Source: an uncultured Spirochaetales bacterium
GTDB lineage: Bacteria; Spirochaetota; Spirochaetia; JAFGDJ01
DNA length: 64,000 nucleotides
Reading direction: 5' to 3'
NCBI GenBank assembly: GCA_964410865.1
Contig: CAYPIQ010000006.1
Span: 36,865-100,864, forward strand
Both the position numbers and the translations under genes were made by a program. The notes below the pieces were generated by a model, which was not told where the DNA came from, searched no databases, and worked only from the letters and a program-made list of their open reading frames with translations. Position 1 is the stretch's first letter. Each line of letters begins with the position of its first letter. Below, piece by piece: positions 2,108-34,496 of the stretch.

Positions 2108-2140
2108 GGGCAACGGATTGACGAGCCGGTGATTTTTACA
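2108..2140 (+). terminator. Weak hairpin plus T-run downstream of the chemotaxis protein gene
   Basis: The sequence 'accggg...ccggtgattttt' forms a 5-bp stem followed by a U-tract; it is weak. Confidence 0.3.
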
Positions 2141-2450
2141 CTTTTCTTTTCACATAAGGCGATCTATACTTAAAAGGGAGTCGACCCTCGACCGCCGGCT
2201 CGGTAACCTGAAGGGGTGTCACTCCCAAATCTGAGCGCTCCGTCCCGGCGGTCCGCACGAAAGACTGGTCCCGGGCTATCGAACACGCCGGCTACCCGCG
2301 CTAAGCCGTTCCCCGTCCCTATTTTGGTCCCTTCTGGAAAAGGGAGGTGGTGAACATTGATACACCCTCCCGGCAATGGTATAGTTACAGGACCGTTAAA
2401 GTACATCACGGGATAACCGTCCGACGGTTGTCCCGGGGAAAGGAAGCACC

Positions 2451-4736: not shown

Positions 4737-4775
4737 ATCGGACTATTGTGATAACATAATGATGGGGGTGCATAC

Positions 4776-5459: not shown

Positions 5460-5482
5460 ATTCCACGTTCCAAGGAACCACC

Positions 5483-6592: not shown

Positions 6593-6605
6593 ACCTGTTT
6601 CTGGT

Positions 6606-7790: not shown

Positions 7791-8187
7791 TAGTTGCTCC
7801 TTGTGCCTGTCCCGGCGGGTATGGCACCCCGACCCTCACACATATCGGCGTGTTATTCCAGTTCATCCCGCCGCCGGGGAGGGATGGGCGGAAAACTCTT
7901 CGCGGCTCAGTTTGAGGATACGTCCTTTCTTCTCTTTACCAAGGTGTAGAAATGTGTTTTTTTCCATTGGTATGATTCTTCTAATAAATTTTATCCCTTT
8001 TCATTGTTTTTATCAACACCGGGAGTGACAGCCGGCGTGTATTTATGGACAGGAAAATTCTCGAGGCCGCTCATGTTACCGGGACCCTGCAATCGGGAAA
8101 AATAGCCGGGCATATCGCGGTTACGCATCGAAAAGGTACAGTATGAAACCCGGGGAAGGTGTCCAGAACAAACTCCGGTCCGATAAT

Positions 8188-12679: not shown

Positions 12680-14062
12680 ATGTCAGTCAAAATATTTTTA
12701 CAGGAAGACGAGATGCCGAAGAAATGGTACAACCTGGCTGCAGATCTGCCCCACCCCCCGCAGCCCCCGCTCGGTCCGGACGGGAACCCCATCACCCCCG
12801 ATATGCTCTCGGCGGTATTCCCGATGAATCTCATTGAGCAGGAGGTGAGTACGGAGAGGTGGATAGATATTCCGGAAAAGGTCCTGGAGATTCTCTATCG
12901 CTGGCGTCCGAGCCCCCTTCATCGGGCAACATTTCTTGAAGAAGAGCTGAAAACACCTGCGCGAATTTATTTCAAGAATGAGAGCCTGTCCCCGGCGGGG
13001 AGCCACAAGCCAAATACGGCGGTTGCCCAGGCGTACTACAACAAAGAATTCGGAATTAAGAAGCTCACCACCGAGACCGGTGCAGGACAATGGGGTAGTG
13101 CCCTGGCGTTTGCCTGTGCTCTTCTGGGGCTTGAGTGCAAGGTGTATATGGTACGGATCAGCTATGACCAAAAGCCCTTCAGAAAGCTGCTGATGCAGAC
13201 CTGGGGAGCCACGTGTATTGCCAGTCCAAGTGATCAGACACAGGCAGGCAGAGATATCCTGGCAAGGGATCCGAATACTCCGGGAAGCCTGGGTATAGCC
13301 ATCAGCGAGGCTATTGAAGAGGCGGTCTCCGACCCTTCCGGGCAAACGAGATACTCCCTGGGAAGTGTTCTGAATCATGTCATGCTGCACCAGTCGATTA
13401 TCGGACTGGAGACCAAGAAACAGCTTGAAAAATTCGGAGAAAGAAAAACCGACATAGTTATCGGATGCGCCGGGGGCGGAAGCAATTTCGCCGGCCTTGC
13501 CTTTCCTTTCCTGGCGGATAAAATCGCCGGTGACGAGGTGACCGTAATACCCGTTGAACCGACCTCATGCCCGACCATGACCAGAGCCCCTTATGCTTAC
13601 GATCATGGTGACGTGGCTAAAATGACGCCCCTTCTGCCTATGCATTCCCTGGGGCATGAATTCATACCGCCTCCTATTCACGCCGGTGGATTGAGATATC
13701 ACGGTATGTCCCCCCTGGTTTCCCAGGCTATTATGGAAGGTCTCCTCGAGCCGAGGGCTTTACACCAGCTCGAATGCTATGAGGCGGCGGTTACCTTTGC
13801 CAGAACAGAAGGCATTGTTGTTGCACCGGAAACAAGCCACGCGGTGGCGGCAGCCATCCAGGAGGCGAAGAAAGCAAGAGAAGAAGGTAAAGAAAAGGTT
13901 ATTGTCTTTAATCTTTCCGGTCACGGCATGTTGGACCTGGCGGGTTACGAAGCCTATTTCCAGGGCAAACTCCACGATTACGCCCTGCCGGAGGAAGAAT
14001 TGGCCAAATCTACCCGGATACTCGAATCGTATCCGAAGCCCCGGGTACCGGTGGGAACCTGA
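12680..14062 (+). CDS. trpB: TrpB-like PLP-dependent enzyme (tryptophan synthase beta chain type 2, TrpB2)
   Basis: The PLP-lysine region '[19 protein letters not shown]' and the 460-aa length are typical of TrpB2, and a strong RBS 'gaggagg' precedes the gene. No trpA is adjacent. Confidence 0.85.
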
Positions 14063-19718: not shown

Positions 19719-21938
19719 TTATGGATTTTTTAGAATATCAACCAGTTCGTGCAGGGTTTTCGGCTTCACTCCCGGCAACCGCTTGAATAATCCCGGGGAG
19801 ATAATCCAGCACCTGTGACCCGACCGCTTTCGCCCGAAGTCCGGTGCACCGGTAAGCTTAGTGATCTCCAGGGCGTCTAATCCCGATATGTTCTCGGGTG
19901 ACAGAATAAAACGCCGTGCGTGGGTAGAAAAGATAAGGTATCCTCCCTTTTCCAGTGTCTCCGAGGCCCGTGTGATAAGGGCTGCATAATCACGCTGAAG
20001 ATCAAAGGTCCCCCTTCTGTCCTTGGAATTGGAAAACGTGGGAGGGTCTATAAGAATGAGTCCGTATCTTTCCCGGTTTTCGCGGAGGAATTCAAAACAA
20101 TCCTGTCGGGCCATACGATGCCTTTCCCCCTGGAAACCGTTATTAAGAAGGTTGTCCCCGGTCCAGTCCAGGTAGGTCCTGGAAGTATCCACGCTCATTG
20201 TTCTTGATGCCCCGCCGGCGGCGGCATATACGGTAGCGGTACCGGTATATGCAAAGAGGTTAAGAAATGATGCGCCCGGTGAGAGCAGTCGGACAAGGGT
20301 GCGTATATACCGGTGATCTGGGAAAATACCCGTGTCCAGATAATCCTGGAGGTTTATGTAAAAACGCAGGCCGTTTTCCTCTATTTCATAGCGTTCGGCC
20401 GTTTGCGCGTATTTATCATACTGTGAAGCCCCCCTCTGCCGCCGGCGGATCTGCAGGACGAGGTCTTGCCGTCCCAGTCCCAGTTCCTGCCGTATAACCG
20501 CACATGCTTCCTTTAACCTTCCGGCGGCGGTCGATTTTTCAATTTCCCGGGGGGGAGCATATTCCTGTACATATACGCGCCTTTTGCCGTACACGTCTTC
20601 GTATACATCAAGAGCCAGGGCGTATTCCGGCATGTCGGCGTCATAGAGACGATAACATGAAACAGCTTCTTCCCGTCTCCACCTTTCGAGGCGCTTTCTG
20701 TTTTTTCGTAGGCGGTTTCGGAACATCTCCGCCCCGGTCGAGAGAGACGCTTCGGCCTGTTCTTTCAGTTCCATGCGCTTATCGGTGCTGAAAATATGGA
20801 AACGATAGAGGGTGCATTGAATGGGGCCGTTGTAGATAATGTTTTTTCTATCGGCCTTCATGCCGGCGGCCGATTCAAACCGGTCGTCCGGTGACAGTAT
20901 CGCCGCATTCCATCCGGGAAAGGAGGTTCGTAGGGTTGTACCGATAACGGCGGGAAGCCTGTCGCCGGCACTGCTTCCTAGGCGTATTCCATAGGGCGGA
21001 TTTGTTACCACCAGCCCTGTCCGCCCGGGGCACGGATTTTCGAGCGTTCTGATGGAACGCTTGCTGAAGGTGATTTTCCCGGCAAGTCCCGCGGCCGCGG
21101 TATTTTCTTCTGCGCCTTCCAGGGATTTCTTCTGGATATCGAAGCCGTAAAGCGGCGGAATTCGCGATAGCCCCTGTTGTCTCCGTTTTTCCGCTTCCTT
21201 TGTAATACCTCCCCAAAGACCGGGGCTGAAGCCCTTCCAGGATATGAATCCGTACTGACGGCGGAGGAGACCCGGTGCTATGTCCCCTGCCATCAGAGCG
21301 GCTTCGATGAGTATTGTTCCGGAACCGCACATCGGGTCCACCAGAGGTCGGTTTTCCTTCATGCAGGTTTCCCAGTGCGCCCGCAGGAGAATGGCCGCGG
21401 CAACAGTCTCCTTCAAGGGGGCGTCTCCGCCGATCAACCTGTAGCCCCTGCGGTGAAGCCCGCCGCCGGAAATATCCAGTGATACGGTGGCTTCTCCCCG
21501 CTCTACATGTACGTGAACGATTATATCGGGATTCTTCCCGTCTACCGAAGGCCTTTTGCCGGTACGGCCGCGAAAATAATCGGCAATACCGTCCTTCGCT
21601 TTCAGGGCGGTAAAGTCCGGCGTATCAGGAAACCGTTTCCCGGTAATGGAAGCCTGGACAGCGAAAGAAGAGGAGGGATCGAAGTGATCCGTCCAGTCGA
21701 TACCTCCGGTAATGCCGTATACCTCCCCGGCGGATTCCGCGGGGGCGGCAGCCAGTTCGAGGTACACCCTCGAAGCCGTCCGGGACCACATGCAGACCCT
21801 GTACGCGGTTTCATCAGTTCCGGAAAACCGGACCCCGGCCGGTCGTCGGACAGTATTCCGGCCGCCCAGTGTGGTAATCTCGGCTTCAAGAAGATCTTCG
21901 ATATGCCTGGAACATGAAGCAAAAAAAATGTGGTTCAT
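19719..21938 (-). CDS. rlmL: Bifunctional 23S rRNA (guanine2445-N2 / guanine2069-N7) methyltransferase RlmKL
   Basis: A 739-aa protein with THUMP plus two SAM-methyltransferase modules ('PMCGSGTILIEAA', 'VVTNPPYG', 'LNLFAYTGTATVYAA', 'IDPPTFSNS') and the RlmK-type C-terminal 'HRCW'. Confidence 0.85.
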   Translation of the reverse strand: MNHIFFASCSRHIEDLLEAEITTLGGRNTVRRPAGVRFSGTDETAYRVCMWSRTASRVYLELAAAPAESAGEVYGITGGIDWTDHFDPSSSFAVQASITGKRFPDTPDFTALKAKDGIADYFRGRTGKRPSVDGKNPDIIVHVHVERGEATVSLDISGGGLHRRGYRLIGGDAPLKETVAAAILLRAHWETCMKENRPLVDPMCGSGTILIEAALMAGDIAPGLLRRQYGFISWKGFSPGLWGGITKEAEKRRQQGLSRIPPLYGFDIQKKSLEGAEENTAAAGLAGKITFSKRSIRTLENPCPGRTGLVVTNPPYGIRLGSSAGDRLPAVIGTTLRTSFPGWNAAILSPDDRFESAAGMKADRKNIIYNGPIQCTLYRFHIFSTDKRMELKEQAEASLSTGAEMFRNRLRKNRKRLERWRREEAVSCYRLYDADMPEYALALDVYEDVYGKRRVYVQEYAPPREIEKSTAAGRLKEACAVIRQELGLGRQDLVLQIRRRQRGASQYDKYAQTAERYEIEENGLRFYINLQDYLDTGIFPDHRYIRTLVRLLSPGASFLNLFAYTGTATVYAAAGGASRTMSVDTSRTYLDWTGDNLLNNGFQGERHRMARQDCFEFLRENRERYGLILIDPPTFSNSKDRRGTFDLQRDYAALITRASETLEKGGYLIFSTHARRFILSPENISGLDALEITKLTGAPDFGRKRSGHRCWIISPGLFKRLPGVKPKTLHELVDILKNP

Positions 21939-22573
21939 GGTGTATTATACTAACTTGATGAATTGAATAAATAGATATACCAGGTTTTTCGGGAGGAATA
22001 TTAGGGATACATATATCGCGTATGGTAAAAAGATAGCTGAAACCCCGTGTTCTTTCGGAAACCACGAACGCTTGTGCTGCCGTTGATTTGAATTATCTTT
22101 CCGGGTCCTTCAGCCGGAGGTCTACCTGCGAAGCCTGGATCAAACCCTTGACCCCGCCACCTGAAAACAACAGTTCTGGGGCAGCGGAAGAATCGTATCC
22201 GCGGTGGACCTGTATGGGGAGATACGCTTTCTTCAGTAAGGGAAGAATATCGGTGCGGTGCTCGCCATGCTGGATTTGGAGCTGTAAGGATTACAGGAGA
22301 AGTTCCGGGCGGTTGTAACGCAGGAAGTCCGGGATCTCGAGGGTATAACAGCTGTTCTGGTAAATATAAATAAGTGAATATTTTCTTCAAATCCTCATTT
22401 TTCATTTTTGAGCAATTATATTTATTTTCTCCATTTAATAGTTAGAAGAGAGTTAAAAATACATGTTTTTTTCCTCTAAGAGTTTCTTGGTTGAATAATA
22501 TTTTACTTCAATACTGGTACTTCAATACCGGCGTGGATTATTCAAATGCTATCAGTAAAGGAAGGTTATAAAT

Positions 22574-23356
22574 ATGATACGAGAATTGTATATTTTCGGA
22601 GGACGGAACAAGTCCGGTGATATGGAACCCCTCAGAGAGTTGAACATTCGTGCGGGAGAAATAATTGGAATAGTTGGGCCCACCGGAAGCGGAAAGAGTT
22701 CACTTATAGCGGATATAGAACAGTTGGCTCAGGAAGATACCCCTACAAAACGAAAAATACTTGTGAATGGACACGTACCGGACCAGGAATTGAGAAACTC
22801 CACCCGTAAAAAAATTGTTGCTCAACTTTCACAGAATATGCATTTCTTCGCCAATATGACGGTTTTCGAGTTTATTCAACTACATGCTAAGTGCAGAGAC
22901 AAACCGGGGTCGGTAATCAACAGGGTTATTGACCTGGCAAATACCCTGACTGGAGAACCTTTACAACCGGCGGACGAGCTCAGCATGTTGAGCGGAGGAC
23001 AATCCCGGGCATTAATGGTCGCCGATATCTCTCTGATCAGCGACTCACCGATTGTACTTATAGACGAGATAGAAAACGCCGGTATAAAGAAGCACGAAGC
23101 CCTTCAGATCCTCGCCGGACATGGGAAGATTGTTCTGGTGGTTACTCATGATCCCGTTCTTGCTCTCCTGGCGTCGAGGAGAATTATTATGAAGAACGGG
23201 GGAATGATAGGCATGGTAGATACCAACGGACTGGAACAGAAGGTTGTATCGCGATTAAACGAATTTGATTGCTGGTTGCTCTCCCTCCGGGATCAGGTGC
23301 GAAGGGGTGAGCGAATCGAGAACTTATCTTTAGTGTCTCCGGAAGTCGGTTCATGA
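22574..23356 (+). CDS. Orphan ABC-type ATPase (transporter-like NBD fold with no permease partner)
   Basis: Walker A 'GPTGSGKSS', signature 'LSGGQSRAL', Walker B 'IVLIDEIE' and H-loop 'VTHD' are present; the length is 260 aa, it is preceded by a roughly 630-bp AT-rich non-coding stretch, and its stop overlaps the next start (ATGA). Confidence 0.7.
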
Positions 23357-23805
23357 GGCTGATTATTGTAGCCGGAACTCCGGGTTCAGGAAAAACATCA
23401 ATTCTCATCCATGTACTGAAACGTCTTACTGAAGCGGGATCGCGGCCTTCAATTATAAAGATAGACTGTTTGTATACCGGCGACGACGCGCGGTTCAGGA
23501 AACTGGGGATTCCTGTCAGGGTTGGGTTATCCAAGGATGTCTGCCCTGATCATTTTACCATCTAAATAATGAATCCAGGATGTAGAATTGTAAACGCCAA
23601 TGGCACGACCGGACAAGGGGCCACGGAGATAGTCGGAATCATACAAACGGGCGGAGATATAGTAGATATAACCGAAGAGAGACTTCGGCATAACGCGCCA
23701 CTTTGTGTATGCACCCTTTGTGTCGGTGAAACAAGGGTCGGGAAGGCGTATCACCGGGGAATACTTCGCAGAATAGACGGGTTCGAGACCTATCTGGGAG
23801 AATAA
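23353..23805 (+). CDS. P-loop NTPase-like protein interrupted by one in-frame TAA (70-aa and 78-aa ORFs in the same frame)
   Basis: Walker A '[10 protein letters not shown]' lies at the N-terminus; TAA at 23563-23565 is in frame with the downstream '[22 protein letters not shown]...' (23569-23805). It may be a pseudogene, a sequencing error, or two genuine small ORFs. Confidence 0.45.
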
Positions 23806-24491
23806 TGGAGAATACTAATAAAAGGACAATCGAATCACTTGTTCAAATTCTTCCCGGATATAATTGCGGTGTCTGCGGTTTTGTCCGGTGTGATATGTTC
23901 GCCAAAGCGTTGCTGGAGGAGAAAACGACGATTGATCTTTGTAAACCACTCATGCAGGAGAGGTTTGTGGGGAAAAGAAGGGCAATCCAGGAAATACTCA
24001 CCGGTAAAACCACCAGGATACCCAAAGCTGTACCAGGAGGTGTGATTGACAAGTATGAAGCCGACTTTATTCTGAAACCCCTGGAGGGTGAAACCTCATG
24101 TCGGGAGATGCTTCACATCTTCGCGCCGATACATATTACCGCCGGTGACATAATTCGCTACAGACCCCTGGGATGCCCGATAACCCATATTGCGGAGGTT
24201 GTCGCGATGAAGATGGGGTTGGCGACAGTTAGGATCATTGGACCGCGGAACCGAATGGGTGAGCAGTTAACAATAAAAGAGGCAGGTATTTGTTTGGTCC
24301 TTGGTTTTGAAGGCACCGTTTCAGGAGATTTGCCTTCGGTGGGAGCCACTGTTCGGTTTGTACCCGGTGAGTGTATGATGCAAAAAGTTCATTCCGGTGT
24401 AATTGTTGGTTGTGAAGGACACCGCGTGGTGATGGAATGTGTCGATCTCAAGGTATGGGCTCCACCGGTTTCCCTACCGGAAACCGAGTAA
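23805..24491 (+). CDS. Fe-S protein with an RnfB-N-terminal-type cluster-binding domain (CxxCxxxxC...C) plus an uncharacterised C-terminal domain
   Basis: The motif 'LPGYNCGVCGFVRCDMFAKALLEEKTTIDLC' matches the RnfB/CFeSP 'FeS' domain pattern; the length is 228 aa and the start overlaps the upstream stop (TAATG). Confidence 0.6.
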   Translation: MENTNKRTIESLVQILPGYNCGVCGFVRCDMFAKALLEEKTTIDLCKPLMQERFVGKRRAIQEILTGKTTRIPKAVPGGVIDKYEADFILKPLEGETSCREMLHIFAPIHITAGDIIRYRPLGCPITHIAEVVAMKMGLATVRIIGPRNRMGEQLTIKEAGICLVLGFEGTVSGDLPSVGATVRFVPGECMMQKVHSGVIVGCEGHRVVMECVDLKVWAPPVSLPETE

Positions 24492-24520
24492 GAGATGCCC
24501 CTGTTTCGTTATGGGATATT

Positions 24521-24562
24521 TAAAAAAAAGGGGCCGCCTTACTTCTAAGAAAGCCCCCTTTG
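24521..24562. terminator. Bidirectional hairpin terminator between the convergent Fe-S gene and the pyruvate:ferredoxin oxidoreductase gene
   Basis: An A-run, the hairpin 'aaggggccgcc...agccccctt' and a T-run; the stem is imperfect. Confidence 0.45.
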
Positions 24563-24582
24563 GAATAAGAATTATTCAAGAA

Positions 24583-27500
24583 TCAGTACTGCCGGTCGGC
24601 CAGGTACTTGTAGGTTTCCCACTGGTCCTTTACGTCCTTCCTGACCTTGTTCAAGAGCATCTCGGCCCTTTCCGGGCTGCTCTGTTTAAGGCCCCGGAAA
24701 CGAATCTCGTTGTACATGTATTCGGCTATGTCTACCGACGGCTCTTTATAATCCAGGGTCAGCGGGTTCTTACCCTCCGCCAGGTTGTCCGGATTATACC
24801 GGTACAGCGGCCAGGCGCCGGAGTTGACGGCCAGTTTTTGCTGATCCATGCCCAGGGTCATATTGATGCCGTGATTGATACAGTGGCTGTATGCAATGAT
24901 CAACGACGGGCCGTCGTAGGCCTCGGCTTCCAGGAAGGCTTTGATCGTCTGCATTCTGTTGTATCCCATGGCAACCTGTGCCACATACACGTATCCATAA
25001 CTCATGACCATCATTCCCAGGTCTTTTTTCTTGACGCCCTTCCCCGCGGCGGCAAACTTGGCGGTGGCGCCCATCGGGGTTGCCTTGGACATCTGGCCGC
25101 CGGTATTGGAATATACACCGGTGTCTAGCACCAGGGCGTTGACGTTTCTTCCCGAAGCCAGCACGTGGTCGAGACCGCCATACCCGATGTCATATGCCCA
25201 GCCGTCTCCGCCCAGGATCCATACGCTGCGGCGTATCAGATAATCTGCCACCGAGAGAAGCTCCGCGGCATCGGGGTCTTCGCTCTTTTCAAGCTGCCTT
25301 TTCAGCTCGTCCACCCAGGATCTCTGGTTTTCTATCTCTACCTGCTCCTTCTGGGGGTTATCCTTTATTTTCTTGAGCAGGTCGGTGTCGATGCCCTTCG
25401 GTTTAGAAGACACCAGGCGGTCCAGGAGCTCCCCGGAATAGGTAACCATCCTATCGGCGGTGAGCCTCATGCCCATACCGAATTCCGCGGCGTCTTCGAA
25501 CAGAGAATTTGACCAGGCCGGTCCACGTCCGTCCTCTCGCCTGGTATACGGCGTAGTGGGCAGATTTCCACCGTAAATGGAAGAGCACCCTGTGGCGTTG
25601 GCTATAACGGCCCGGTCACCGAAAAACTGGCTCAGCAGCTTTACGTAGGGCGTTTCGCCGCAGCCGGCACAGGCCCCCGAGAATTCGAACAGCGGCTGGA
25701 GCAACTGGCTGCCCTTGGTGGTATGCCGTTTGATAAGAGAAGCATCGGTGTTGGGGATAGAGAGGAAGTAATTCCAGTTTTCGACCTCCTGATCCCTCAA
25801 GGGGAGCTGAGTCTCCATATTGATGGCCTTTTCTTCCGTTTTTTCTCCGTTAACCTTCTTGTACGCGGGGCAGATATTCACGCAGGAACCGCAGCCGGTA
25901 CAGTCCTCGGGGGCTACCTGGAGGGTGAATTTCATCCCGGAGAATTCTTTGCCCTTGGCGTCGGTGCTCTTGAAGGTTTCGGGAGCATCTTCCAGGTACT
26001 TCGGGTCGTAGACCTTCATCCGGATAACCGCGTGGGGACAAACGGTCGAACAGTCCCCGCACTGGATACAAGTATCCGGATCCCAGACAGGAATATTTTC
26101 GGCGATGTTGCGTTTCTCGTACTTTGTTGTACCGGTGGGATAGGTGCCGTCTTCCGGTAACTTGGATACGGGGATTTCCGTACCCCGAAAGGCGATTATT
26201 TCGCCGGTGACTTCCTTGACGAAGTCCGGGGCGTCATCAGGAACCGGGGGAATCATGTGGATGGTTCCGCCGGTTTCCTTCGGGTAGTTCACTTCTTCTA
26301 TCCTGGTTCTGGCCGCTTCAATGGCATCCATATTCAGTTTGACAATGTCGGAGCCCTTGGAGCCGTAGGTGTCTTCCACTGATTTTCTGATGAGTTCCAG
26401 GGCTTTATCTTCAGATAGGATGCCGGAAATGAGAAAGAAGGCGGTTTGCATTATCGTGTTGATTCTGCCCCCGAGCCCGATATTCTGGGCGATATTGATG
26501 GCGTCTATGACATAGAATCGTAATTTCTTGTCGATGATCGCCTGCTGGACTTCTACCGGAATATTTTCCCAGACCTCGTCTGCGCCGAAGGGGGCATTGA
26601 GCAGGAATACGCCTCCTACATCGGCGTATTTAAGCATGTCGTATTTTTCGAGAAAAGAGAATTTATGGCAAGCGACGAATTGGGCTTTCTGAATGAGATA
26701 GCTCGATTTGATTGGACGTTTACCGAAGCGCAGGTGGCTGGTCGTCATGGCGCCCGCTTTTTTCGAGTCGTATACAAAGTACCCCTGGGCGTAGTTTTCC
26801 GTGGCCTTACCGATAATCTTTATCGAGTTCTTGTTTGCGCTTACGGTTCCGTCCGAACCGAGACCGAAGAAAACCGCGCGGTGAACATCCTCCGGTTCTA
26901 TGGAGAGGTCCTTGTCCCATTCAAGGCTGGTAAAGGTACGATCGTCATGAATACCGACGGTAAAATGATTCATGGGAGATTCTTTTTTCAGGTTGTTGAA
27001 TACCGAAATAGCCATGGCGGCGGTAAACTCGTTGGACCCGAGACCGTAGCGTCCGCCGACGATAACGGGGTAGTCTGAGAAGGGTGCTTTTCCGGAGGCC
27101 ATTACTTCACCCACGGCGGTGCGAACATCTTCGTACAGCGGTTCGCCCAGGGCTCCCGGTTCCTTTGTCCTGTCCAGGACGGCTATTTTTTGTGCCGTCG
27201 CAGGAAGGGCCGCCACGAGGGCTTCGGTGTCGAAGGGACGGAAAAGCCGCACCTTTATCATTCCGACTTTTTCGCCCTTACCCGAGAGGTATTCGACTGT
27301 CTCCTCCACCGTGTCGGCGGAACTCCCCATGAGGATGACCACTCGTTCGGCGTCCGGTGCCCCCAGGTAGTCGAACAACCGGTATTGCCGCCCGGTAAGA
27401 GAGGCGAAACGGTCCATCATATCCTGTACATGCTTCGGTGCCTCCAGGTAGTACTTGTTGACGGTTTCCCGGGCGGCAAAAAACACGTCCGGATTCTGGC

Positions 27501-28164
27501 TGGTCCCGCGGAGTGCGGGATTCTCCGGATTAAGCCCCCGCTTTCTGTGGGCTCGTACAAGGTCGTCGTCTATCATTTTACGAAGGACCGATTCGGGAAT
27601 TTCTTCGACCTTACTTATTTCATGGCTTATCCTGAAACCGTCGAAGAAATGTAAAAAGGGCACCCGCGACTTAAGAGTCGCAGCCTGGGAAATTAACCCG
27701 AGGTCCAGTACTTCCTGCACGGAATTGGAGGCAATAAGCCCGAATCCCGTGGACCGCGCCGCCATAACGTCGGAATGATCGCCGAAGATGGACAGGGCCT
27801 GGCAAGCCACTGACCTGGCGGCAATATGAAAGACCGTCGGGGTGAGTTCCCCGGCAATCTTGAACATATTGGGCAGCATCAGGAGAAGCCCCTGGGATGC
27901 GGTAAAGGTTGTTGTTAAAGCGCCGGTGGTCAGAGCACCGTGAACGGCGCCGGAAGCTCCGCCTTCCGATTGCATTTCGATAACATCCGGGATGGTGCCC
28001 CAGATGTTCTTTTTGCCCTGCGCGGAGTAGAGGTCTGCGAGTTCCCCCATGGGAGAAGAGGGGGTTATCGGATAAATAGCTATAACCTCGTTGGTTGGAT
28101 GAGCAACCATGGCAGCGGCAGTGTTCCCGTCAATTGTAATCATGTTTTTATCAGACATATTCAA
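24583..28164 (-). CDS. Pyruvate:ferredoxin (flavodoxin) oxidoreductase, single-chain PFOR/NifJ type
   Basis: A 1193-aa protein with conserved PFOR N-terminal ('IDGNTAAAMVAHPTNEVIAIYPITPSS'), two 4Fe-4S ferredoxin motifs ('CIQCGDCSTVCPHAVIR', 'CTGCGSCVNICPA') and the TPP-binding C-terminal domain ('GGDGWAYDIGYGGLDHV'). Confidence 0.95.
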   Translation of the reverse strand: MNMSDKNMITIDGNTAAAMVAHPTNEVIAIYPITPSSPMGELADLYSAQGKKNIWGTIPDVIEMQSEGGASGAVHGALTTGALTTTFTASQGLLLMLPNMFKIAGELTPTVFHIAARSVACQALSIFGDHSDVMAARSTGFGLIASNSVQEVLDLGLISQAATLKSRVPFLHFFDGFRISHEISKVEEIPESVLRKMIDDDLVRAHRKRGLNPENPALRGTSQNPDVFFAARETVNKYYLEAPKHVQDMMDRFASLTGRQYRLFDYLGAPDAERVVILMGSSADTVEETVEYLSGKGEKVGMIKVRLFRPFDTEALVAALPATAQKIAVLDRTKEPGALGEPLYEDVRTAVGEVMASGKAPFSDYPVIVGGRYGLGSNEFTAAMAISVFNNLKKESPMNHFTVGIHDDRTFTSLEWDKDLSIEPEDVHRAVFFGLGSDGTVSANKNSIKIIGKATENYAQGYFVYDSKKAGAMTTSHLRFGKRPIKSSYLIQKAQFVACHKFSFLEKYDMLKYADVGGVFLLNAPFGADEVWENIPVEVQQAIIDKKLRFYVIDAINIAQNIGLGGRINTIMQTAFFLISGILSEDKALELIRKSVEDTYGSKGSDIVKLNMDAIEAARTRIEEVNYPKETGGTIHMIPPVPDDAPDFVKEVTGEIIAFRGTEIPVSKLPEDGTYPTGTTKYEKRNIAENIPVWDPDTCIQCGDCSTVCPHAVIRMKVYDPKYLEDAPETFKSTDAKGKEFSGMKFTLQVAPEDCTGCGSCVNICPAYKKVNGEKTEEKAINMETQLPLRDQEVENWNYFLSIPNTDASLIKRHTTKGSQLLQPLFEFSGACAGCGETPYVKLLSQFFGDRAVIANATGCSSIYGGNLPTTPYTRREDGRGPAWSNSLFEDAAEFGMGMRLTADRMVTYSGELLDRLVSSKPKGIDTDLLKKIKDNPQKEQVEIENQRSWVDELKRQLEKSEDPDAAELLSVADYLIRRSVWILGGDGWAYDIGYGGLDHVLASGRNVNALVLDTGVYSNTGGQMSKATPMGATAKFAAAGKGVKKKDLGMMVMSYGYVYVAQVAMGYNRMQTIKAFLEAEAYDGPSLIIAYSHCINHGINMTLGMDQQKLAVNSGAWPLYRYNPDNLAEGKNPLTLDYKEPSVDIAEYMYNEIRFRGLKQSSPERAEMLLNKVRKDVKDQWETYKYLADRQY

Positions 28165-28250
28165 TCCTTATCCTTAAAAGTTACGATTTCATTAAAGTAT
28201 AGGCCGATCTTCTAGTTTGTTCAAGGAAACCGGAAGGCCGAAACGGCATT

Positions 28251-29495
28251 TTATGCCGGATATCGGAGCCATTTGAGAATTTCTCCGAAACTGAAGCGTT
28301 TACCGGTCATCAGGATTCCCACCCGGAATATCTTCGCCGCCCCGTAGATCGTCAGCAGTATTGTGGCTGTGAGAATCCCGAAACACAGCCCCAGTTCCCA
28401 GGCCTTCGGCATGGATACCAGCACCCGGGTAAACATCACCACCGGGGCGGTAAGGGGAAAGTAGGAAAGTACCTGGGTGAAGGTGGATGCCGGGTTCATG
28501 ACGATGGGTGATATCATCACCATGGGTATGACGAGAAATATAATGAGGGGCCAGGCGAGCTGTCCGAGATTCTGTTCGTCCTCCGCCACCGAACCCAGGG
28601 CGGCATAGGCCCCGGAGTAGATCAGAAAGGCGGCAACGAAGAAAAGTACCAGGAACACCAGGTTTGTAGTGTTCAGGGCTTCCGGCAGGTTCAACTCCAG
28701 GGCGGGTCCGACCACCTTGATCATCAAGAGACCCATACCGATCCACACGGCGTATTGCAGCAGACCGGCGGCTCCCAGGCCGAAGATCTTTCCGAACATA
28801 ATCTGGTTCGGTTTGGCGGAGGACAGGATAATTTCCACGGTTTTCGAGGTCTTCTCGGTAATCACCGAACGGCCGATCATCTGGCCGTAGAGAAGGATGG
28901 TCATGTAGAGCATCATAATAAAGGCAATGGAGGTCATGATGATGCTGAAGAAGTCCTGATCCTGTTCTTCACCACCCTTGCTTACCTTTTTTACCTCCAG
29001 GCTCGGCATAGACGAGATCTGCCGTATCTGTTCCGGTTCGAACCCTGCTTCCCGCATACGCTGGGATACAGCCAAGTTACCCAGGACCGCCCTTAAGGTT
29101 TCGGAGACCGCCACATCGGTTCCCGTTTTGGAATAGTACTGGAACACCCGGGCGTTGGTCAGGTCTTCCGGTATGACCAGGACCCCCTGCATGGTCTCCT
29201 CTTCCAGGACCCGCTGCTTCATGGATTCAAGGTCGGAACCTTCTTCTATTATAATACCGTCCTTATCCACCGCCGACTGCAGGATGGCCGTTATCTGCGG
29301 ACTGGAACCAACGACCCCGATCCTGGTGCCCTCTTTCACCATGTTCACCCGGGTTGACAGCAGGCTGGGCAGCACAGCCACGGCCAGGATAAGGAAGGGG
29401 CCGAGGATGGTAATGATGATGAAAGCCTTGGTGGATGTGATTCCGCTGAACTCGTGTCGGGCAATGGTAAGCATCTTGTTCCGTTTCGTACTCAT
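28251..29495 (-). CDS. ABC-2 family exporter permease
   Basis: A 414-aa protein with an N-terminal transmembrane helix, a large extracytoplasmic loop and five C-terminal transmembrane helices; it is adjacent to its ATPase. Confidence 0.75.
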   Translation of the reverse strand: MSTKRNKMLTIARHEFSGITSTKAFIIITILGPFLILAVAVLPSLLSTRVNMVKEGTRIGVVGSSPQITAILQSAVDKDGIIIEEGSDLESMKQRVLEEETMQGVLVIPEDLTNARVFQYYSKTGTDVAVSETLRAVLGNLAVSQRMREAGFEPEQIRQISSMPSLEVKKVSKGGEEQDQDFFSIIMTSIAFIMMLYMTILLYGQMIGRSVITEKTSKTVEIILSSAKPNQIMFGKIFGLGAAGLLQYAVWIGMGLLMIKVVGPALELNLPEALNTTNLVFLVLFFVAAFLIYSGAYAALGSVAEDEQNLGQLAWPLIIFLVIPMVMISPIVMNPASTFTQVLSYFPLTAPVVMFTRVLVSMPKAWELGLCFGILTATILLTIYGAAKIFRVGILMTGKRFSFGEILKWLRYPA

Positions 29496-29505
29496 GGCTT
29501 TCCTC

Positions 29506-30393
29506 CTATTCCTTTACCAGGTCCACAAAGATCTTGTGGAGCGACGGTGCGACGATTTCGAACCTGCGGATGGAGATCTTTCCCACCATGGCCGACAACA
29601 GTGTATCCGGATCGGATCCCTCGGCCAGGGTTATCTCCACGTATCGCGGATAGCGGACCATCGCGGCAACCTGCGGCAGGTCGTCTATAAATGCACCGTC
29701 GCCGGAGAACTCCACGATTACCGAGCGCCGGCCGAAGCGGTCCTTTATCTCGTCCATGGGGCCATAGGCCACCTCCCGGCCGTGGTTCATCAGGAGAATC
29801 TTGCTGCAGATCTTCTCCGCCTGGTCCATGATGTGGGTGGAAAAGAGCACCGTTTTTCCGTCGGCGGCCATGGCATGAATGGTCTCCCGGAGCATGTCGG
29901 TGCTTACCGGATCCAGCCCCGAGAAGGGCTCGTCGAAGAACATGATCTCCGGATCGTGGACCACCGAGGCGATAAACTGGATTTTCCGGCTCATTCCCTT
30001 GGATAGTTCATCCACCTTGCTGTTCTTCCATGCCCTCAGGTCGAAACGCTCGAGCCAGGTGTCGATGCTTTTCTGTAGGAGGTCATCGGGTTTGTCCTTC
30101 AGCCGGCCCAGGTAGAGGAGCAGGTCGTTGACCTTCCGATTCTTGTACAGCCCCCGTTCCTCCGGTAGGTAGCCGATGCGGTTTTTATCCTCCTCGGTAA
30201 TGGGGGTGCCCTCGAAGAGGATCGTCCCCTCGTCGGGAGCAAGGATATTCATGATCATCCTGATGGTAGTAGTTTTCCCCGCACCGTTGGGCCCGAGGAG
30301 CCCGAAGATCTCTCCCCTGTCCGTGGTAAAGGAAATTCCGTCCACGGCGGTTACCGTGTCGAACCGTTTTCTAACATTTCTCAATTCTATCAT
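29506..30393 (-). CDS. ABC transporter ATP-binding protein (ABC-2 type partner)
   Basis: Walker A 'GPNGAGKTT', signature 'LSKGMSRK' and Walker B 'IMFFDEPFSGLD'. Confidence 0.9.
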   Translation of the reverse strand: MIELRNVRKRFDTVTAVDGISFTTDRGEIFGLLGPNGAGKTTTIRMIMNILAPDEGTILFEGTPITEEDKNRIGYLPEERGLYKNRKVNDLLLYLGRLKDKPDDLLQKSIDTWLERFDLRAWKNSKVDELSKGMSRKIQFIASVVHDPEIMFFDEPFSGLDPVSTDMLRETIHAMAADGKTVLFSTHIMDQAEKICSKILLMNHGREVAYGPMDEIKDRFGRRSVIVEFSGDGAFIDDLPQVAAMVRYPRYVEITLAEGSDPDTLLSAMVGKISIRRFEIVAPSLHKIFVDLVKE

Positions 30394-30403
30394 GTCATCT
30401 TCC

Positions 30404-31942
30404 TTATCCCTGGAATTCGTAGAGTAACCGTATTATATCGGCTTCAGCGAACAGGTCTACCAGTTTTTCCTGGATTATCGAACGTACCGTCGCCGGAGAA
30501 GACCTTCGCTCGAAAGAGTCCGCAATGCGCGAAAAGGTATCATAAAACGCTTCGGGACCGAACCGGGTGAATACACCGGGATCGGGGTTGCAGGATGATT
30601 CATCAATAGCCCGAATGTTCTCGAAAAGCCGGTAATTCAAACTTCTCAGTTCGTCACGAAAGGCCTGATCCCCGAGGCGTTCCAGCACTGTTACCTGCAA
30701 GTCCACATGCAGCATGGCAAAATCAGCCGTCCCTTCGTTCAGGCCGTCCAGGAATGCGGCTAATATGTCCGTGTTGAATCCCAACCTCTCGGAACGCCGA
30801 GTATAGCGTTGTTTGAGGGCAAGTATATCCCTGGATGTGAGGGGAATATTGAAATAGGTATAAAAGATTGCAGGGTACCGATGGAAAAAATCCCGAATAC
30901 CCTCGAGGATGTCGAGGTTACGGGCTATCAGCGGTTTTCTCCACTGTACGGCATCGGTATACAGGTACCCGAACCCCTCCTGTACGGAAGAAGAAATAAT
31001 GACGTCGGATGAGACCGCCAGCCGGTTGAAGCCTATACCGGCTTCATCGAGCCGCCGCCCGATTCCCCACATACCGGGTATTATCCCCCTGTGGTACAGA
31101 TCCTGGACCAGGGCGGAGTAGGGTTGTTCCTGTTTTGACACGCCGGGAAGCGTCAGCAGAAGGTTTGCACCCTGGAGAGCACATATGAGCCCTGCTTCCA
31201 GAACGTTTTTTCGGCGGATAGTCCTGACCGGATAGAGCCACAGGGGTTTATCCGGGTCATAGGAGGGAAAGGTATGTCCGAAAGCGTGCTCCAGGCGGCG
31301 GCGGAGGTCGGCAGGATCAGCCTCCGGCGGGGCGCGCAGTTCCACCGGGTTGTTGAGCAGAAAAACACAGTCCTCCGGTAAGCCGGCCCGGATAAGTAAC
31401 CGGTAATCCCGGTTGTTTATCACAGCATAACGGACATTCGGCAGAACAGGGTATACCTCTTTTCCTGCAAAATGCTGCAAAAACGAAAGATTGTAATAGC
31501 GGCCGTTCTCCGGAAAATCGTGGATGTGCAGAAGAATAGGCTGGTCCGAATTCTCTCCCGCGGCTTCCAAAAGCGTTGCTGTGAACACCGGGTTCTTCCC
31601 CAGGTGATAGTTGTGAACCCACCATAGGAAACCGTCGTAGTCGGAAACCAGCCGGTTCTTCAGGCCTCGTCGGTCGATGGACTCCGCCTCCTCCGGAGTG
31701 ACATAGCCGATTTCGGGGACAACCGACACGCCGATCCGGATATCCCTGCCCGCCGTCTGAACCTCCTTCCGCAGCCGGTCGGCCACCGTGCCGGCGTTTT
31801 CCGCCGTGCCGACCACCAGGAGTACCTCACCTAGAGCGGGGTGATTGTGTATCAGTGCCTTGAGGGAGAGGAAGATCACATTGGTCACACCGCCGGGAAG
31901 AAGGTGATAATGGAAGACGGCGATTCGGTTTGTAGAGCTCAT
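30404..31942 (-). CDS. GT4-related glycosyltransferase-like protein with a roughly 150-aa C-terminal extension (distant paralog of the genes at 38205 and 60814)
   Basis: The internal Met start 'MSSTNRIAVFHYHLLPGGVTNVI' resembles the 'IGFISTRFSGTDGVTLE' N-terminus of the paralogs, and an 'EGFG' motif 'SSVQEGFGYLYTDAVQWRKPLIARN' aligns with their 'EGFGNAFLEAVYFQKPILVNRY'. Confidence 0.5.
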   Translation of the reverse strand: MSSTNRIAVFHYHLLPGGVTNVIFLSLKALIHNHPALGEVLLVVGTAENAGTVADRLRKEVQTAGRDIRIGVSVVPEIGYVTPEEAESIDRRGLKNRLVSDYDGFLWWVHNYHLGKNPVFTATLLEAAGENSDQPILLHIHDFPENGRYYNLSFLQHFAGKEVYPVLPNVRYAVINNRDYRLLIRAGLPEDCVFLLNNPVELRAPPEADPADLRRRLEHAFGHTFPSYDPDKPLWLYPVRTIRRKNVLEAGLICALQGANLLLTLPGVSKQEQPYSALVQDLYHRGIIPGMWGIGRRLDEAGIGFNRLAVSSDVIISSSVQEGFGYLYTDAVQWRKPLIARNLDILEGIRDFFHRYPAIFYTYFNIPLTSRDILALKQRYTRRSERLGFNTDILAAFLDGLNEGTADFAMLHVDLQVTVLERLGDQAFRDELRSLNYRLFENIRAIDESSCNPDPGVFTRFGPEAFYDTFSRIADSFERRSSPATVRSIIQEKLVDLFAEADIIRLLYEFQG

Positions 31943-32008
31943 ACCCCGCAATAATACAAAAAACACGGCGGGCTTACAACATGAGAAGGTTTCCCTTATC
32001 GAAACCAA

Positions 32009-33106
32009 TTAACCCCGAGTGCGGGCAAATTCCTTCATAAAATCTGCCAGGGCTTGTGCCCCTTCCGGCGGCATGGCGTTATAGATGGAGGCTCTGCAAC
32101 CGCCGACACTCCGGTGTCCTTTTAAACCAATCATGCCCTTTTCAGCCGCTTCAGCAATAAAGGCCTTTTCCAGGTCCTCCGAGGGAAGCCTGAAGACCAC
32201 GTTCATATCGGAACGGACGGCCTTATCCACCGGGCAGCGGTAGAACCCGCCGCTGGAATCGATTGCATGGTACAGGGCATCGGCCTTCCGCCGGTTCAGT
32301 TCCTGCACCGTCGGGATGCCGCCGGAGTCTTTCAACAGCCGTAGGACATGGTGCACGGCATAGACCGAGAAGACCGGCGGGGTGTTGTACATGGAGTCTT
32401 TTTCAGCGTGGGTTTTATAGGAGAGGTAGGCCGGAAGGCTGTCCGGGGATGTCTCCACCAGGTCCTTCCGGATAATGACGACGGTAATACCCGCCGGACC
32501 GATGTTCTTCTGTGCCCCGGCATAAATAAGACCGAAGGTATCGATATCTACCGGGCGACTGAGGATGTCGCTGGACATATCCGCCACCAGGGGTATGTCC
32601 CCCGTATTGGGAAAGCTTTTCCACTGCACCCCGCCGATGGTTTCGTTGGAGGTGAGGTGTACATAGGCCGAACCGGGACTTGGTTGTATCGAACCGGGGT
32701 CGGGCAGGCTAGTGTATCCGCCCTCCTTGCCGTCGAAAAGAACATTCACCTTTCCTATCTTCTGCGCGTCGGTACATGCCTTCTTTGCCCAGGATCCGCT
32801 CAGGATATAGTCGCAGCACGTACCCTTCGGCAGAAGATTCATGGGAACCATGGCAAACTGTAAGGTTGCTCCCCCGCCGAGGAACAGGACGGTGTAGTTC
32901 TTGGGAATGTCCAGAAGTTCGGCCAGGAGTCCGATGGTCTCCATGTGAATATTTTCGTACATCCTGCTCCGGTGGCTCGTTTCTATCATTGAAAGGCCTT
33001 CGCCGTGGTAGTCGATCATTTCGTCCCGGAGCTGTTCCAGAACCTTTAACGGCAGAGTTGCCGGTCCTGCATAAAAATTAATCTTTCTATTCATAATATT
33101 CCTCAC
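32009..33106 (-). CDS. serC: Phosphoserine aminotransferase
   Basis: The sequence 'INFYAGPATLPLKVLEQLRDEM...SHRS' and the PLP-lysine region are class-V aminotransferase features typical of SerC; the start is probably the Met 4 codons downstream (MNRKINF). Confidence 0.85.
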   Translation of the reverse strand: MRNIMNRKINFYAGPATLPLKVLEQLRDEMIDYHGEGLSMIETSHRSRMYENIHMETIGLLAELLDIPKNYTVLFLGGGATLQFAMVPMNLLPKGTCCDYILSGSWAKKACTDAQKIGKVNVLFDGKEGGYTSLPDPGSIQPSPGSAYVHLTSNETIGGVQWKSFPNTGDIPLVADMSSDILSRPVDIDTFGLIYAGAQKNIGPAGITVVIIRKDLVETSPDSLPAYLSYKTHAEKDSMYNTPPVFSVYAVHHVLRLLKDSGGIPTVQELNRRKADALYHAIDSSGGFYRCPVDKAVRSDMNVVFRLPSEDLEKAFIAEAAEKGMIGLKGHRSVGGCRASIYNAMPPEGAQALADFMKEFARTRG

Positions 33107-34317
33107 TCTATTTCATTCATGACGGCTTCGTATATATCCTTGCTCGAAGCGGCCAGTTCTTTAAGCTGTTCCGGACTCAGGGCGTCGTCGATCTGGATGT
33201 TGGCACACGCACCGTCGGCACCGGAAAATATGATATTTTCCATCCTCTCGATGTTGATACCATGGTCGCGAATGACCCGCAGGATATCTGCCAGTACACC
33301 AACCCTGTCCCGATGACGGACTGAGACCATGTATTTAGCCGGGGTTTTTTCCATGACGTTAACACAGTTGGGGACGTGGCCCGTTACAAGGAAGTCGCTG
33401 ATAATCCTTACCGTTTCATCGGCCACAGCATCCTGAGCCTGGTTTGTTGATGCGCCGATATGGTGGGTACCATATACGGAGGGATGAGAGGCCAGGGGGC
33501 TGGAAAAATCTCCCTGCTTTGCGGATGGTTCTCCCTCGAACACGTCGAGTCCGGCCTTGATCTTTTTAGTGTCCAGGGCTTTGATGAGGGCATCTTCATC
33601 CACAATTTCCGCCCGGGATGTATTGATAAAGACGCTTCCCTCCTTCATGGCTTCGAAGAAAGCCTTTCCTATACACTTGCGGGTATCCGGTGTCAAGGCG
33701 AGATGTACAGAAACAATATCCGCATCCGCCGCAGCCGCTTCCGGCGTTTCACGGTAGCCGATACCCATAAAAGCCGCCTTTTCCAGGGTCAGGGACCGGC
33801 TCCAGGCAATAATCCTCATGCCGAAAGCCCGGGCGCGCGTTATGACCTCCCGGCCGATTCGGCCGGTACCTATGACGGCCAGGGTCTTCCCGTATATGCC
33901 GTCGGCTTTTGAATACTCTTTCTTGTTCCAGATGCCGTTTCTCAATTCCATGACATTATCGGGAATACGCCGGTCTATGCTCATTATCAGTCCCATGGCG
34001 AGTTCCGCCACCGCTACTGCGTTTTTCCCGGGGCAGTTGGCCACGTAGATACTCTTGGCCGACGCGGCATCCACGTCGATGGTATTAAAACCGGCACCGG
34101 CCCGGACAATGAGAGAGAGATCCTTTGCAGCCTCGATCATCTCTTTTGTTACCCTTGTAGAGCGGACAATAATTATGGACGGGTTATCATCCTTTATTAC
34201 CTGTAATAGGGTTTCATCCGCTAGTTCCGGCTTGTTGATTACCGGTCGTCCCAGGGATTCCAACCGCCGGACGGCTGATTCCGGCAGTTTGTCCGCTATG
34301 AGAATTGTTCTTTTCAT
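33103..34317 (-). CDS. serA: D-3-phosphoglycerate dehydrogenase with a C-terminal ACT domain
   Basis: NAD-binding 'GTGRIGREV' and the catalytic 'SVHLALTPDTRKCIG...GASTNQA' are present. The real start is the Met of 'MKRTILIAD' (CAT at 34315-34317), preceded by an AGGAGG RBS; the ORF-track N-terminal extension is just a translation of the upstream repeat element. Confidence 0.9.
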   Translation of the reverse strand: MKRTILIADKLPESAVRRLESLGRPVINKPELADETLLQVIKDDNPSIIIVRSTRVTKEMIEAAKDLSLIVRAGAGFNTIDVDAASAKSIYVANCPGKNAVAVAELAMGLIMSIDRRIPDNVMELRNGIWNKKEYSKADGIYGKTLAVIGTGRIGREVITRARAFGMRIIAWSRSLTLEKAAFMGIGYRETPEAAAADADIVSVHLALTPDTRKCIGKAFFEAMKEGSVFINTSRAEIVDEDALIKALDTKKIKAGLDVFEGEPSAKQGDFSSPLASHPSVYGTHHIGASTNQAQDAVADETVRIISDFLVTGHVPNCVNVMEKTPAKYMVSVRHRDRVGVLADILRVIRDHGINIERMENIIFSGADGACANIQIDDALSPEQLKELAASSKDIYEAVMNEIE

Positions 34318-34330
34318 ACTCGTTCCTCCT

Positions 34331-34496
34331 GATTCGCACGGGGGATTCATACCCCGCGGCTTGCTGCTCTCTTTGTAGCCGAGCCGGCTGACTGCCTCGC
34401 CAATGGTTGCGGTACGGGGTATGAATCCCGTATACAATCCATACCTTGCAAAACCGACATACCCCGCCCCTTGGGACGGGGTATGTCGGTTTTTTA
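34331..34496 (+). repeat. Copy A of a roughly 165-nt structured intergenic repeat element
   Basis: It contains the long-range stem 'gggattcataccccg'/'cggggtatgaatccc', a constant core 'gccgagccggctgactgcctcgccaatggttgc' and a 3' hairpin 'cgacataccccgcccc-ttgg-gacggggtatgtcg' followed by TTTTTT. It is near-identical to the copies at 49150 and, in reverse orientation, 58737. Confidence 0.85.

Follow-up and report, generated by a model that had tools for sequence, protein, structure and literature searches.

To our knowledge, every characterised GTPase of the G3E family delivers metal to a client protein, the partners being HypA for HypB and UreEF for UreG. The small [4Fe-4S] domain PF04060 is an electron-transfer cluster in RnfB and in the corrinoid/iron-sulfur protein (CFeSP). 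Soluble nucleotide-binding domains (NBDs) of the ATP-binding cassette (ABC) type that have no membrane partner and are encoded beside Fe-S proteins are represented by SufC, of SufBCD, and by A2 (AtwA), and likeness to these makes an ATP-driven conformational or redox role plausible for an ABC protein in such a setting. A2 is a component of the ATP-driven MCR activation complex (PMC12176620). Here we describe a locus in which genes for proteins of these three kinds stand side by side, at positions 21939 to 24562 of a 64,000-nt stretch of DNA from an uncultured Spirochaetales bacterium (the window, by which we mean the whole stretch). Comparison with related loci firmly identifies it as a pseudogenised copy of a conserved module that consists of an ABC-type ATPase, a G3E GTPase and a protein with an N-terminal [4Fe-4S] domain (the FeS protein); we refer to the three as the trio. 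The parts are of known kinds, with one novel domain, and their combination is undescribed, so that the trio may be regarded as a variant of the nucleoside triphosphatase (NTPase)-assisted metallocentre systems.

Each component resembles its described counterparts in part. The intact GTPase orthologues have in common with UreG and HypB the Walker A motif GxxGxGKT, a Cys-Pro-(Asp)-His motif, ExxG and [NT]KxD, but carry additional strictly conserved cysteine motifs (DCL, LCHRC and CTLC...H) and a C-terminal extension of ~45 residues, and they are encoded with an ABC ATPase and an FeS protein in the place of HypA or UreEF. The FeS protein has only the ~35-residue cluster domain in common with RnfB and the CFeSP large subunit, and is without the membrane anchor and ferredoxin domain of the former and the TIM barrel of the latter. 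For the ABC ATPase we detected no specific sequence relationship to SufC or A2, its best matches being generic NBDs; A2 has two domains, whereas this protein has one, with ENAG as its D-loop.

A deleted GTPase gene and its upstream region

We compared the locus with 160 related loci (80 GTDB contigs, one genome per species, and 80 JGI metagenome contigs), in which the trio genes were placed by tblastn. A close relative of the window is the JGI metagenome contig L001 (91–93% identical), which aligns by blastn in three blocks of 90–93% nucleotide identity: window 19943–22072 with L001 128–2256, window 22065–23568 with L001 3845–5336, and window 23568–29500 with L001 5587–11514. The L001 segments left between these blocks, 2257–3844 and 5337–5586, are both clean gaps; the first falls upstream of the trio and the second within the GTPase gene. 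For SerC, a protein encoded farther downstream in the window, the best named relatives are those of a Spirochaetales metagenome-assembled genome (75%) and of Marispirochaeta (68%).

The four open reading frames (ORFs) of a preliminary description of this DNA were all found as called, on the plus strand: an ABC-type ATPase of 260 aa, apparently intact (22574–23356); ORFs of 70 aa (23353–23565) and 78 aa (23569–23805); and the FeS protein of 228 aa (23805–24491). Also present are the overlaps that couple them (ATGA at 23353, TAATG at 23805) and the in-frame junction at which the TAA at 23563–23565 is followed in the same frame by the next ORF, with TAA-ATA between. The reading of the two middle ORFs as a split P-loop protein, by contrast, does not hold, as they are the two ends of a single gene with a 249-bp internal deletion. 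The intact counterpart in L001 (5120–5821) is a 233-aa PF02492 gene; the window retains family residues 1–70 and 157–233 in the same frame, with the TAA at the junction, and has lost 83 codons in frame (family residues 71–153). The 70-aa ORF (PF02492 at E = 6.4e-5; 93% amino acid identity to L001 residues 1–70) keeps the Walker A sequence GTPGSGKT and the CPDH metal motif. The 78-aa ORF keeps the CTLC and HRG motifs and, in an alignment with 19 full-length family members, falls at their C-terminus; its start methionine is internal in the intact protein, and taken alone it had no family match in Pfam and NCBIfam scans. Alignment with the 19 full-length relatives shows that the ETAG Walker B/switch II motif, LCHRC, C110, GPN and the guanine-specificity motif TKGD have gone with the deletion. 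The window copy, with residues 71–153 absent and a TAA at 23563–23565, thus has no complete G3E core; it is a pseudogene, and to judge from the sequence no GTPase can form from the two stubs.

Two routes to a functional product were considered and rejected. Selenocysteine insertion or other recoding at the stop was raised by a lead to NF041053, a CobW-related selenoprotein family, but the stop is a TAA exactly at the deletion junction, and the match to NF041053 is limited to the P-loop (residues 1–36 or 1–39) at 20–27 bits against a cut-off of 180. Rescue by frameshifting fails on the other two frames of 23353–23830, which are full of stops. Internal truncation of the G3E gene occurs in 0 of the 160 related loci, where the gene is full length in 154, cut by the contig end in five and upstream of the contig start in one, and the best 120 G3E homologues in a collection of 5.8 billion proteins are all 231–244 aa long. 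The module is most likely non-functional in the organism of the window, whose copy amounts to a natural knock-out or loss-of-function allele, the GTPase gene being lost and the flanking ABC and FeS genes intact.

The other gap lies in the ~630 bp that precede the ABC gene, which had been described as an AT-rich non-coding leader. This holds for the last 195 bp (22379–22573, plus strand), which are AT-rich, intergenic and presumed to be the operon promoter region. Two thirds of the stretch are firmly identified, by alignment with L001, as the remnant of a deleted M28 peptidase gene (22004–22378, plus strand), and this dead remnant of 375 bp accounts for most of the supposedly non-coding DNA. 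In L001 the gene is a 654-aa ORF (2187–4151) whose product matches Peptidase_M28; in the window ~69 nt of its 5′ end are joined near 22072 to ~306 nt of its 3′ end, with only ~4 nt of microhomology (CGAA) at the deletion junction, and an interior of ~1.59 kb, measured against L001, is missing. The remnant has also lost its start codon (ATG to AGG) and has acquired one frameshift and three in-frame stops, the latter at Gly or Glu codons of L001. Its GC content in sliding windows is 0.43–0.51, that of the 300 nt at 22300–22599 is 0.32, and the intergenic segment is 90% identical to a 189-bp counterpart in L001 (4152–4340).

Searches of the upstream region found no Rfam family at E ≤ 1 and no riboswitch, and neither the whole window nor 13 related loci gave an Rfam match that would explain a leader RNA or riboswitch; the window holds no RNA genes. 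Scans of the upstream stretch for sigma-70 consensus promoters and for terminators returned counts no higher than in shuffled sequence. A 14-nt tandem duplication in perfect register (TACTTCAATACTGG / TACTTCAATACCGG) lies at 22504–22531, ~45 bp upstream of the ABC start. The unit TACTTCAATAC is present in single copy in L001, so that the duplication is specific to the window; we therefore read it as a recent slippage event and rejected it as a conserved regulatory operator.

Conservation of the three-gene module

That the genes are correctly identified and the trio is conserved is close to certain. The trio was found in all 160 related loci. In essentially every one of these that is long enough, the ABC, G3E and FeS genes are adjacent and co-directional, and the carriers include Methanobacteriaceae, Methanocaldococcus, Methanothrix, Spirochaetota, Bacteroidota (Marinilabiliales and relatives) and Bacillota, with identities to the window or L001 proteins of ~57–65% for the ABC ATPase, 55–70% for the G3E GTPase and 46–55% for the FeS protein. 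When 1.84 billion cluster representatives were searched exhaustively by HMMER with the FeS protein, only ~20 strong clusters were returned, together with a fringe of divergent members of the same architecture. Of five divergent members that were looked up, four lie on contigs that are long enough, and all four are accompanied by ABC- and cobW-type or -sized genes; the three components thus travel together well beyond the core family. Some Methanobacteriaceae loci (L008, L012, L022, L025, L090, L100 and L101) have 0.7–2 kb inserted between the ABC and G3E genes.

Two of the carriers are well-known methanogens, which makes the trio a conserved, cross-domain and uncharacterised NTPase/Fe-S system with members in Methanocaldococcus jannaschii and Methanothermobacter thermautotrophicus. 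The G3E member of M. jannaschii is MJ0120, labelled 'Uncharacterized protein MJ0120', with MJ0121 as the ABC orthologue and MJ0119 as the FeS orthologue. In M. thermautotrophicus Delta H the G3E and ABC proteins are AAB86144 and AAB86145, the ABC and FeS orthologues being MTH1673 and MTH1671. The numbers MJ0121, MJ0119 and MTH1673 to MTH1671 were deduced from the order of the genes, the consecutive accessions and the number of ComA, MTH1674. A full-text literature search found no papers on MJ0119–0121 or MTH1671–1673.

The preliminary description had wavered between a soluble, ATP-driven redox or maturation module and a decaying cluster, and each of these readings holds in part: the gene set is a genuine, conserved module that lacks a permease, and the present copy of it is decaying. 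Homologues with a nearby permease, which would have made the operon an importer fragment, do not appear as a conserved feature in the 160 loci. Pseudogenised ORFs in related genomes had been named as the other sign against a real system, and here the situation is reversed, with the relatives intact and the window carrying the pseudogene.

Protein families of the module

The intact GTPase orthologues carry the features of the G3E family (PF02492), namely Walker A, a Cys/His motif, an ExxG Walker B and TKGD. In alignment with UreG of Klebsiella, CPDH falls on the Ni-binding CPH, ETAG on ESGG and TKGD on NKTD, and three of the proteins (those of L001, L002 and L005) match the HypB model TIGR00073 at E = 1e-12 to 2e-14 over residues 6–183. 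They are not equivalogs of either protein, scoring 45–54 bits against a cut-off of 121 for TIGR00073 and 24–28 against 204 for the UreG model TIGR00101, and no hyp or ure genes were seen among the neighbouring genes that were listed or clustered.

For the FeS protein, profile searches bore out the earlier account of an RnfB/CFeSP-type N-terminus joined to an unrecognised C-terminal domain. The PF04060 [4Fe-4S] domain spans residues 16–48 (nt 23850–23948; E = 5.5e-11), with C21, C24, C29 and C46 as the cluster cysteines in the arrangement CxxCxxxxC...C, and the profile matches RnfB (7zc6_B) and CFeSP (4djd_C) over residues 11–51. The protein is not an RnfB, as only the PF04060 segment matches (TIGR01944, 30 bits against 69) and no rnf genes are adjacent. 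No Pfam or NCBIfam family was found for the remaining ~180 residues, which include a C-terminal domain of ~150 residues (24036–24488), and searches of the PDB found no structural relative of this domain. In an AlphaFold2 model (mean predicted local distance difference test score 84.6) a small helical cluster domain is followed by a linker and an all-beta C-terminal part, which forms a novel two-beta-barrel. Across 120 FeS sequences C124, H128, C190 and H196 are invariant, and these four, together with C99, C163, R100, R118, R120, R150, R184 and K194, make up the set of residues that are invariant or nearly so; in the divergent members only the motifs GCPxxH and CMMxxxH, compared by eye, are kept. 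This pattern suggests a putative metal-binding site of Cys2His2 type in the C-terminal domain. The FeS protein of the window has an 89%-identical relative on L001.

The ABC ATPase had been credited with all canonical motifs, and this is largely right: Walker A (GPTGSGKS, residues 35–42), a Q-loop (LSQN, 85–88), LSGGQ (139–143), Walker B (IVLIDE, 160–165) and an H-loop (THD, 191–193) are present, while the D-loop is atypical (ENAG, not SALD). The match to the nucleotide-binding-domain family PF00005 is clear (E = 2.3e-17; 64 bits against a cut-off of 25). No NCBIfam transporter family scores above 54 bits, with cut-offs of at least 245 among those listed, and generic NBDs such as LolD, ArtP and MJ0796 are the closest PDB chains, at ~50 bits; searches of NCBIfam and the PDB gave no close characterised relative. 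The remark that no permease stands by the operon was accurate, in that the nearest permease, of ABC-2 type (28251–29495, minus strand), has an ATPase of its own (29506–30393). Across the 160 related and four divergent loci the ABC gene has no conserved permease or binding protein next to it, and the cognate permease that a transporter ATPase would be encoded with is thus missing.

Gene neighbourhoods

Enzymes that open sulfonate biosynthesis adjoin the trio in 101 of the 160 related loci. In 92 loci of Methanobacteriaceae type (55 of the 80 species and 37 of the 80 metagenome contigs) the phosphosulfolactate synthase ComA (TIGR03849, 340 bits against a cut-off of 280) is encoded directly upstream of the ABC gene, at a median distance of 3 nt from ComA end to ABC start and with a one-base overlap in Methanothermobacter. 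In nine further loci the adjoining gene encodes cysteate synthase (TIGR03844, 437–586 bits against 325 in the five copies scanned), and it does so in two arrangements. It lies 3′ of the FeS gene in L009, L076, L077, L089 and L147 (Bacillota and Spirochaetota) and in L167, whereas in the archaeal-type loci L085, L165 and L166 it lies immediately upstream of the ABC gene, L166 running on into an AglB gene. A BioF/SPT-like acyltransferase gene follows cysteate synthase in L009, L076, L077, L089 and L147, and a short-chain dehydrogenase/reductase (SDR) gene after the acyltransferase was confirmed in L077. Sulfonolipid synthesis opens with three enzymes, cysteate synthase, cysteate fatty-acyltransferase and the SDR ketocapnine reductase (PMC11211663), and the class II methanogen route to coenzyme M starts with cysteate synthase (PMC12713407). 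ComA and cysteate synthase are non-homologous and act on different carbon substrates; the substrate they have in common is sulfite.

The window itself has no sulfonate-biosynthesis cluster: tblastn found no ComA, cysteate synthase, cysteate acyltransferase-like or CysP-like gene anywhere in its 64 kb. A PALP-family enzyme encoded at 12680–14062 was considered as a candidate and rejected, being TrpB-like and not a cysteate synthase. That gene, on the plus strand, encodes a stand-alone TrpB-like (TrpB2; NF009057, 717 bits) pyridoxal phosphate enzyme.

Other neighbours vary with lineage. About 20 loci of Bacteroidota type (L057, L075, L079–L081, L086, L134, L139, L148, L149, L151, L154–L160, L162 and L164) have upstream genes for a small HisKA_3-type kinase (~318 aa, with an all-transmembrane sensing region) and a LuxR/NarL-type regulator, and in Bacillota loci the pair is an AgrC-like kinase with a LytTR regulator, so that two unrelated two-component systems have joined the same operon. 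In three loci the trio is followed by a gene for a PiT-family permease, whose nearest relative is the CysP sulfate permease. The oxyanion-binding protein of L009 was examined as a sulfate or tungstate binder and rejected, as it is a phosphate binder of the PstS family (258 bits). Genes for HcyBio, a YeiH-family transporter, a TOBE protein and an HMA P-type ATPase each occur in single divergent loci. One of these, L168, carries a divergent trio at 1268–8185 (FeS protein P0308), with the HMA-domain P-type ATPase gene divergently transcribed at one flank and, at the other, convergent genes for HcyBio (COG1900, a homocysteine-biosynthesis sulfur-incorporation protein), NadA and a small ferredoxin.

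Proposed function and alternatives

The explanation that best accounts for the locus, to which we give a probability of roughly 0.6, is that it is a degraded copy of a widespread but uncharacterised nucleoside triphosphate (NTP)-driven metallocentre module tied to sulfite-dependent sulfonate synthesis. The function is inferred from gene neighbourhood and from family analogy. Repeated and independent placement beside ComA and cysteate synthase suggests that sulfite is what the module acts on, produces or hands over, and we put the functional link of the trio to sulfite and sulfonate metabolism at even odds.

How the three proteins would divide the work is a tentative proposal, for which the odds are somewhat adverse. 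By analogy with the characterised G3E GTPases, the GTPase of an intact module would load metal into a partner, and its natural client could be the C-terminal Cys2His2-type site of the FeS protein. A dimer of the ABC ATPase might serve as a soluble clamp or energiser driven by nucleotide, in the manner of SufC within SufBCD and of A2 in MCR activation, and the N-terminal [4Fe-4S] domain would move electrons in or out. The product or substrate of the module would then stand at the sulfite-consuming first step of sulfonate biosynthesis.

The origin of the sulfite used by ComA and cysteate synthase in sulfide-grown methanogens is an acknowledged gap (PMC3448663, PMC6286981): Dsr-LP acting in reverse or alSir has been suggested as the source, and some methanogens are without both Dsr-LP and Fsr. 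That the trio provides the missing supply, or the safe handover, of sulfite for sulfonate biosynthesis in strict anaerobes is a stronger proposal and an unlikely one. If it were true, the module would serve the making of coenzyme M in methanogens, by way of either ComA or cysteate synthase, and in bacteria that of cysteate for sulfonolipids; the FeS protein would represent a new, small metalloenzyme, which its own GTPase matures and a soluble ABC ATPase energises; and the window would record the loss of the module in a spirochaete that no longer needs it. A module that stands beside two non-homologous sulfite-consuming enzymes in different lineages is a concrete and genetically testable candidate.

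Several observations weigh against a tie to sulfonate synthesis or against decay of the whole module. In 33 informative loci the flanks contain neither ComA nor cysteate synthase, and these include the window, L001, Methanocaldococcus and ~20 loci of Bacteroidota type; other neighbours point in different directions, among them two-component systems, a P-type ATPase with an HMA domain, a TOBE domain and a phosphate-binding protein of PstS type. The ComA link is confined to loci of Methanobacteriaceae type and may represent one evolutionary event. No sulfite-forming chemistry can be identified from the sequences, and a literature search found no experiment or paper on the trio. In the window, moreover, the ABC and FeS genes still look constrained: relative to L001, the ABC gene has a ratio of nonsynonymous to synonymous substitution rates (dN/dS) of 0.07 and the FeS gene one of 0.25, with 0.04 for the neighbouring pyruvate:ferredoxin oxidoreductase (PFOR) gene, and no decay was seen in the FeS gene, all five of whose departures from conserved columns are common to L001. 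Either the deletion is very recent or both proteins are useful without the GTPase. Finally, the NCBI record and the second assembly described below may come from the same reads, in which case a second assembler confirms the deletion but a second sample does not.

Among the alternatives, dedicated delivery of nickel, cobalt or zinc to a known metalloenzyme (hydrogenase, CODH/ACS or urease) or to a corrinoid protein, with the FeS protein as a redox-sensing adaptor and no link to sulfur, is unlikely but has several points to recommend it. HypB and UreG are the nearest relatives of the G3E protein, which preserves the CPH-type motif, the corrinoid/Fe-S protein has PF04060 as its cluster domain, an HMA heavy-metal P-type ATPase gene lies divergently upstream in one divergent locus, and the JGI annotation of the family reads 'Ni2+-binding GTPase involved in maturation of urease and hydrogenase'. 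However, the HypB and UreG scores fall well below their cut-offs, as given above, and no hyp, ure, coo or acs gene was found among the neighbours listed, clustered or scanned. The neighbours seen to recur in more than one phylum are only ComA or cysteate synthase, and two-component systems. Metal delivery of this kind fits the GTPase, then, but not its neighbours.

A different objection is that faulty assembly, through collapse or chimerism in a metagenome-assembled genome (MAG), produced both the truncation and the upstream gap, and that trio and M28 gene are really intact. The source, a contig of 106,540 bp, is probably from a MAG, and the NCBI record and the second assembly may stem from one sequencing run. 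Against this, a Logan contig assembled from run SRR2187629 (L007) matches the window with 100% identity over 5404 bp that include both junctions, so that two assemblers agree there. The GTPase junction is a clean, in-frame loss of 83 codons, and the nonsense and frameshift changes and the lost start codon of the M28 remnant point to real decay, since misassembly would not produce them. We consider it very probable that the deletion is real, and an artefact correspondingly unlikely.

Very unlikely, in our view, is a molybdate or tungstate cofactor-handling module like the archaeal MobB–FeS-domain fusions of PRK14494, in which a small P-loop GTPase and a PF04060 domain are fused, whereas in the trio they are encoded as neighbours. 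The FeS protein matches these models weakly (E = 0.004–0.09) and the G3E fragment matches MobB at E ~1e-4; a TOBE (molbindin) gene lies near one divergent trio, and PiT-type and PstS-type oxyanion transporter genes adjoin some loci. The matches are, however, only to a generic P-loop and a 33-residue cluster domain: the PRK14494 models have ~230–245 positions, roughly MobB plus the FeS domain, of which the window protein matches only the FeS-domain segment, and the fused GTPase is of the MobB family, that of the trio of the G3E family. The TOBE association is found in a single locus, the binding protein of L009 is the phosphate binder noted above, and no moa, moe or mob gene was found among the neighbours listed, clustered or scanned.

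An ordinary ABC transporter fragment, whose ATPase would energise a permease encoded elsewhere with the GTPase and FeS genes as unrelated neighbours, can be dismissed as highly improbable: the PF00005 match, the transporter NBDs among the closest PDB chains and the ABC-2 permease 5 kb away in the window speak for it, but that permease has a DrrA-type ATPase directly upstream, all NCBIfam transporter models score far under their cut-offs, the ABC and G3E genes overlap or abut in almost all loci, and in the 160 loci, which span two domains of life, the trio has no conserved permease or binding protein as a neighbour.

Further features of the window

At its 3′ end the locus meets the convergent PFOR gene (24583–28164, minus strand). 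The preliminary description was right about this neighbour but gave the adjacency more weight than it bears, as among the loci with genes listed or clustered it is common only to the window and L001. The hairpin at the operon/PFOR boundary (24526–24561), which had been called a bidirectional terminator, is real but folds well on one strand only: read on the minus strand, that of PFOR, it folds at -19.4 kcal/mol (z -2.45) and is followed by a T8 tract, whereas on the plus strand it folds at -11.9 kcal/mol (z +0.62), no better than shuffled sequence.

On the other side of the locus, an RlmKL-type gene (THUMP and two methyltransferase domains) at 19719–21938 was compared with its counterpart at L001 566–2122. 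The window product has 739 aa; the L001 call has 518 aa and differs in its C-terminal sequence, which suggests a frameshift or assembly error in L001 rather than in the window. Farther downstream, a 533-aa ORF with no Pfam or NCBIfam match (30404–32008, minus strand) lies between the ABC-2 exporter ATPase gene and a serC–serA pair (32009–34542), tightly packed and apparently co-directional with both neighbours.

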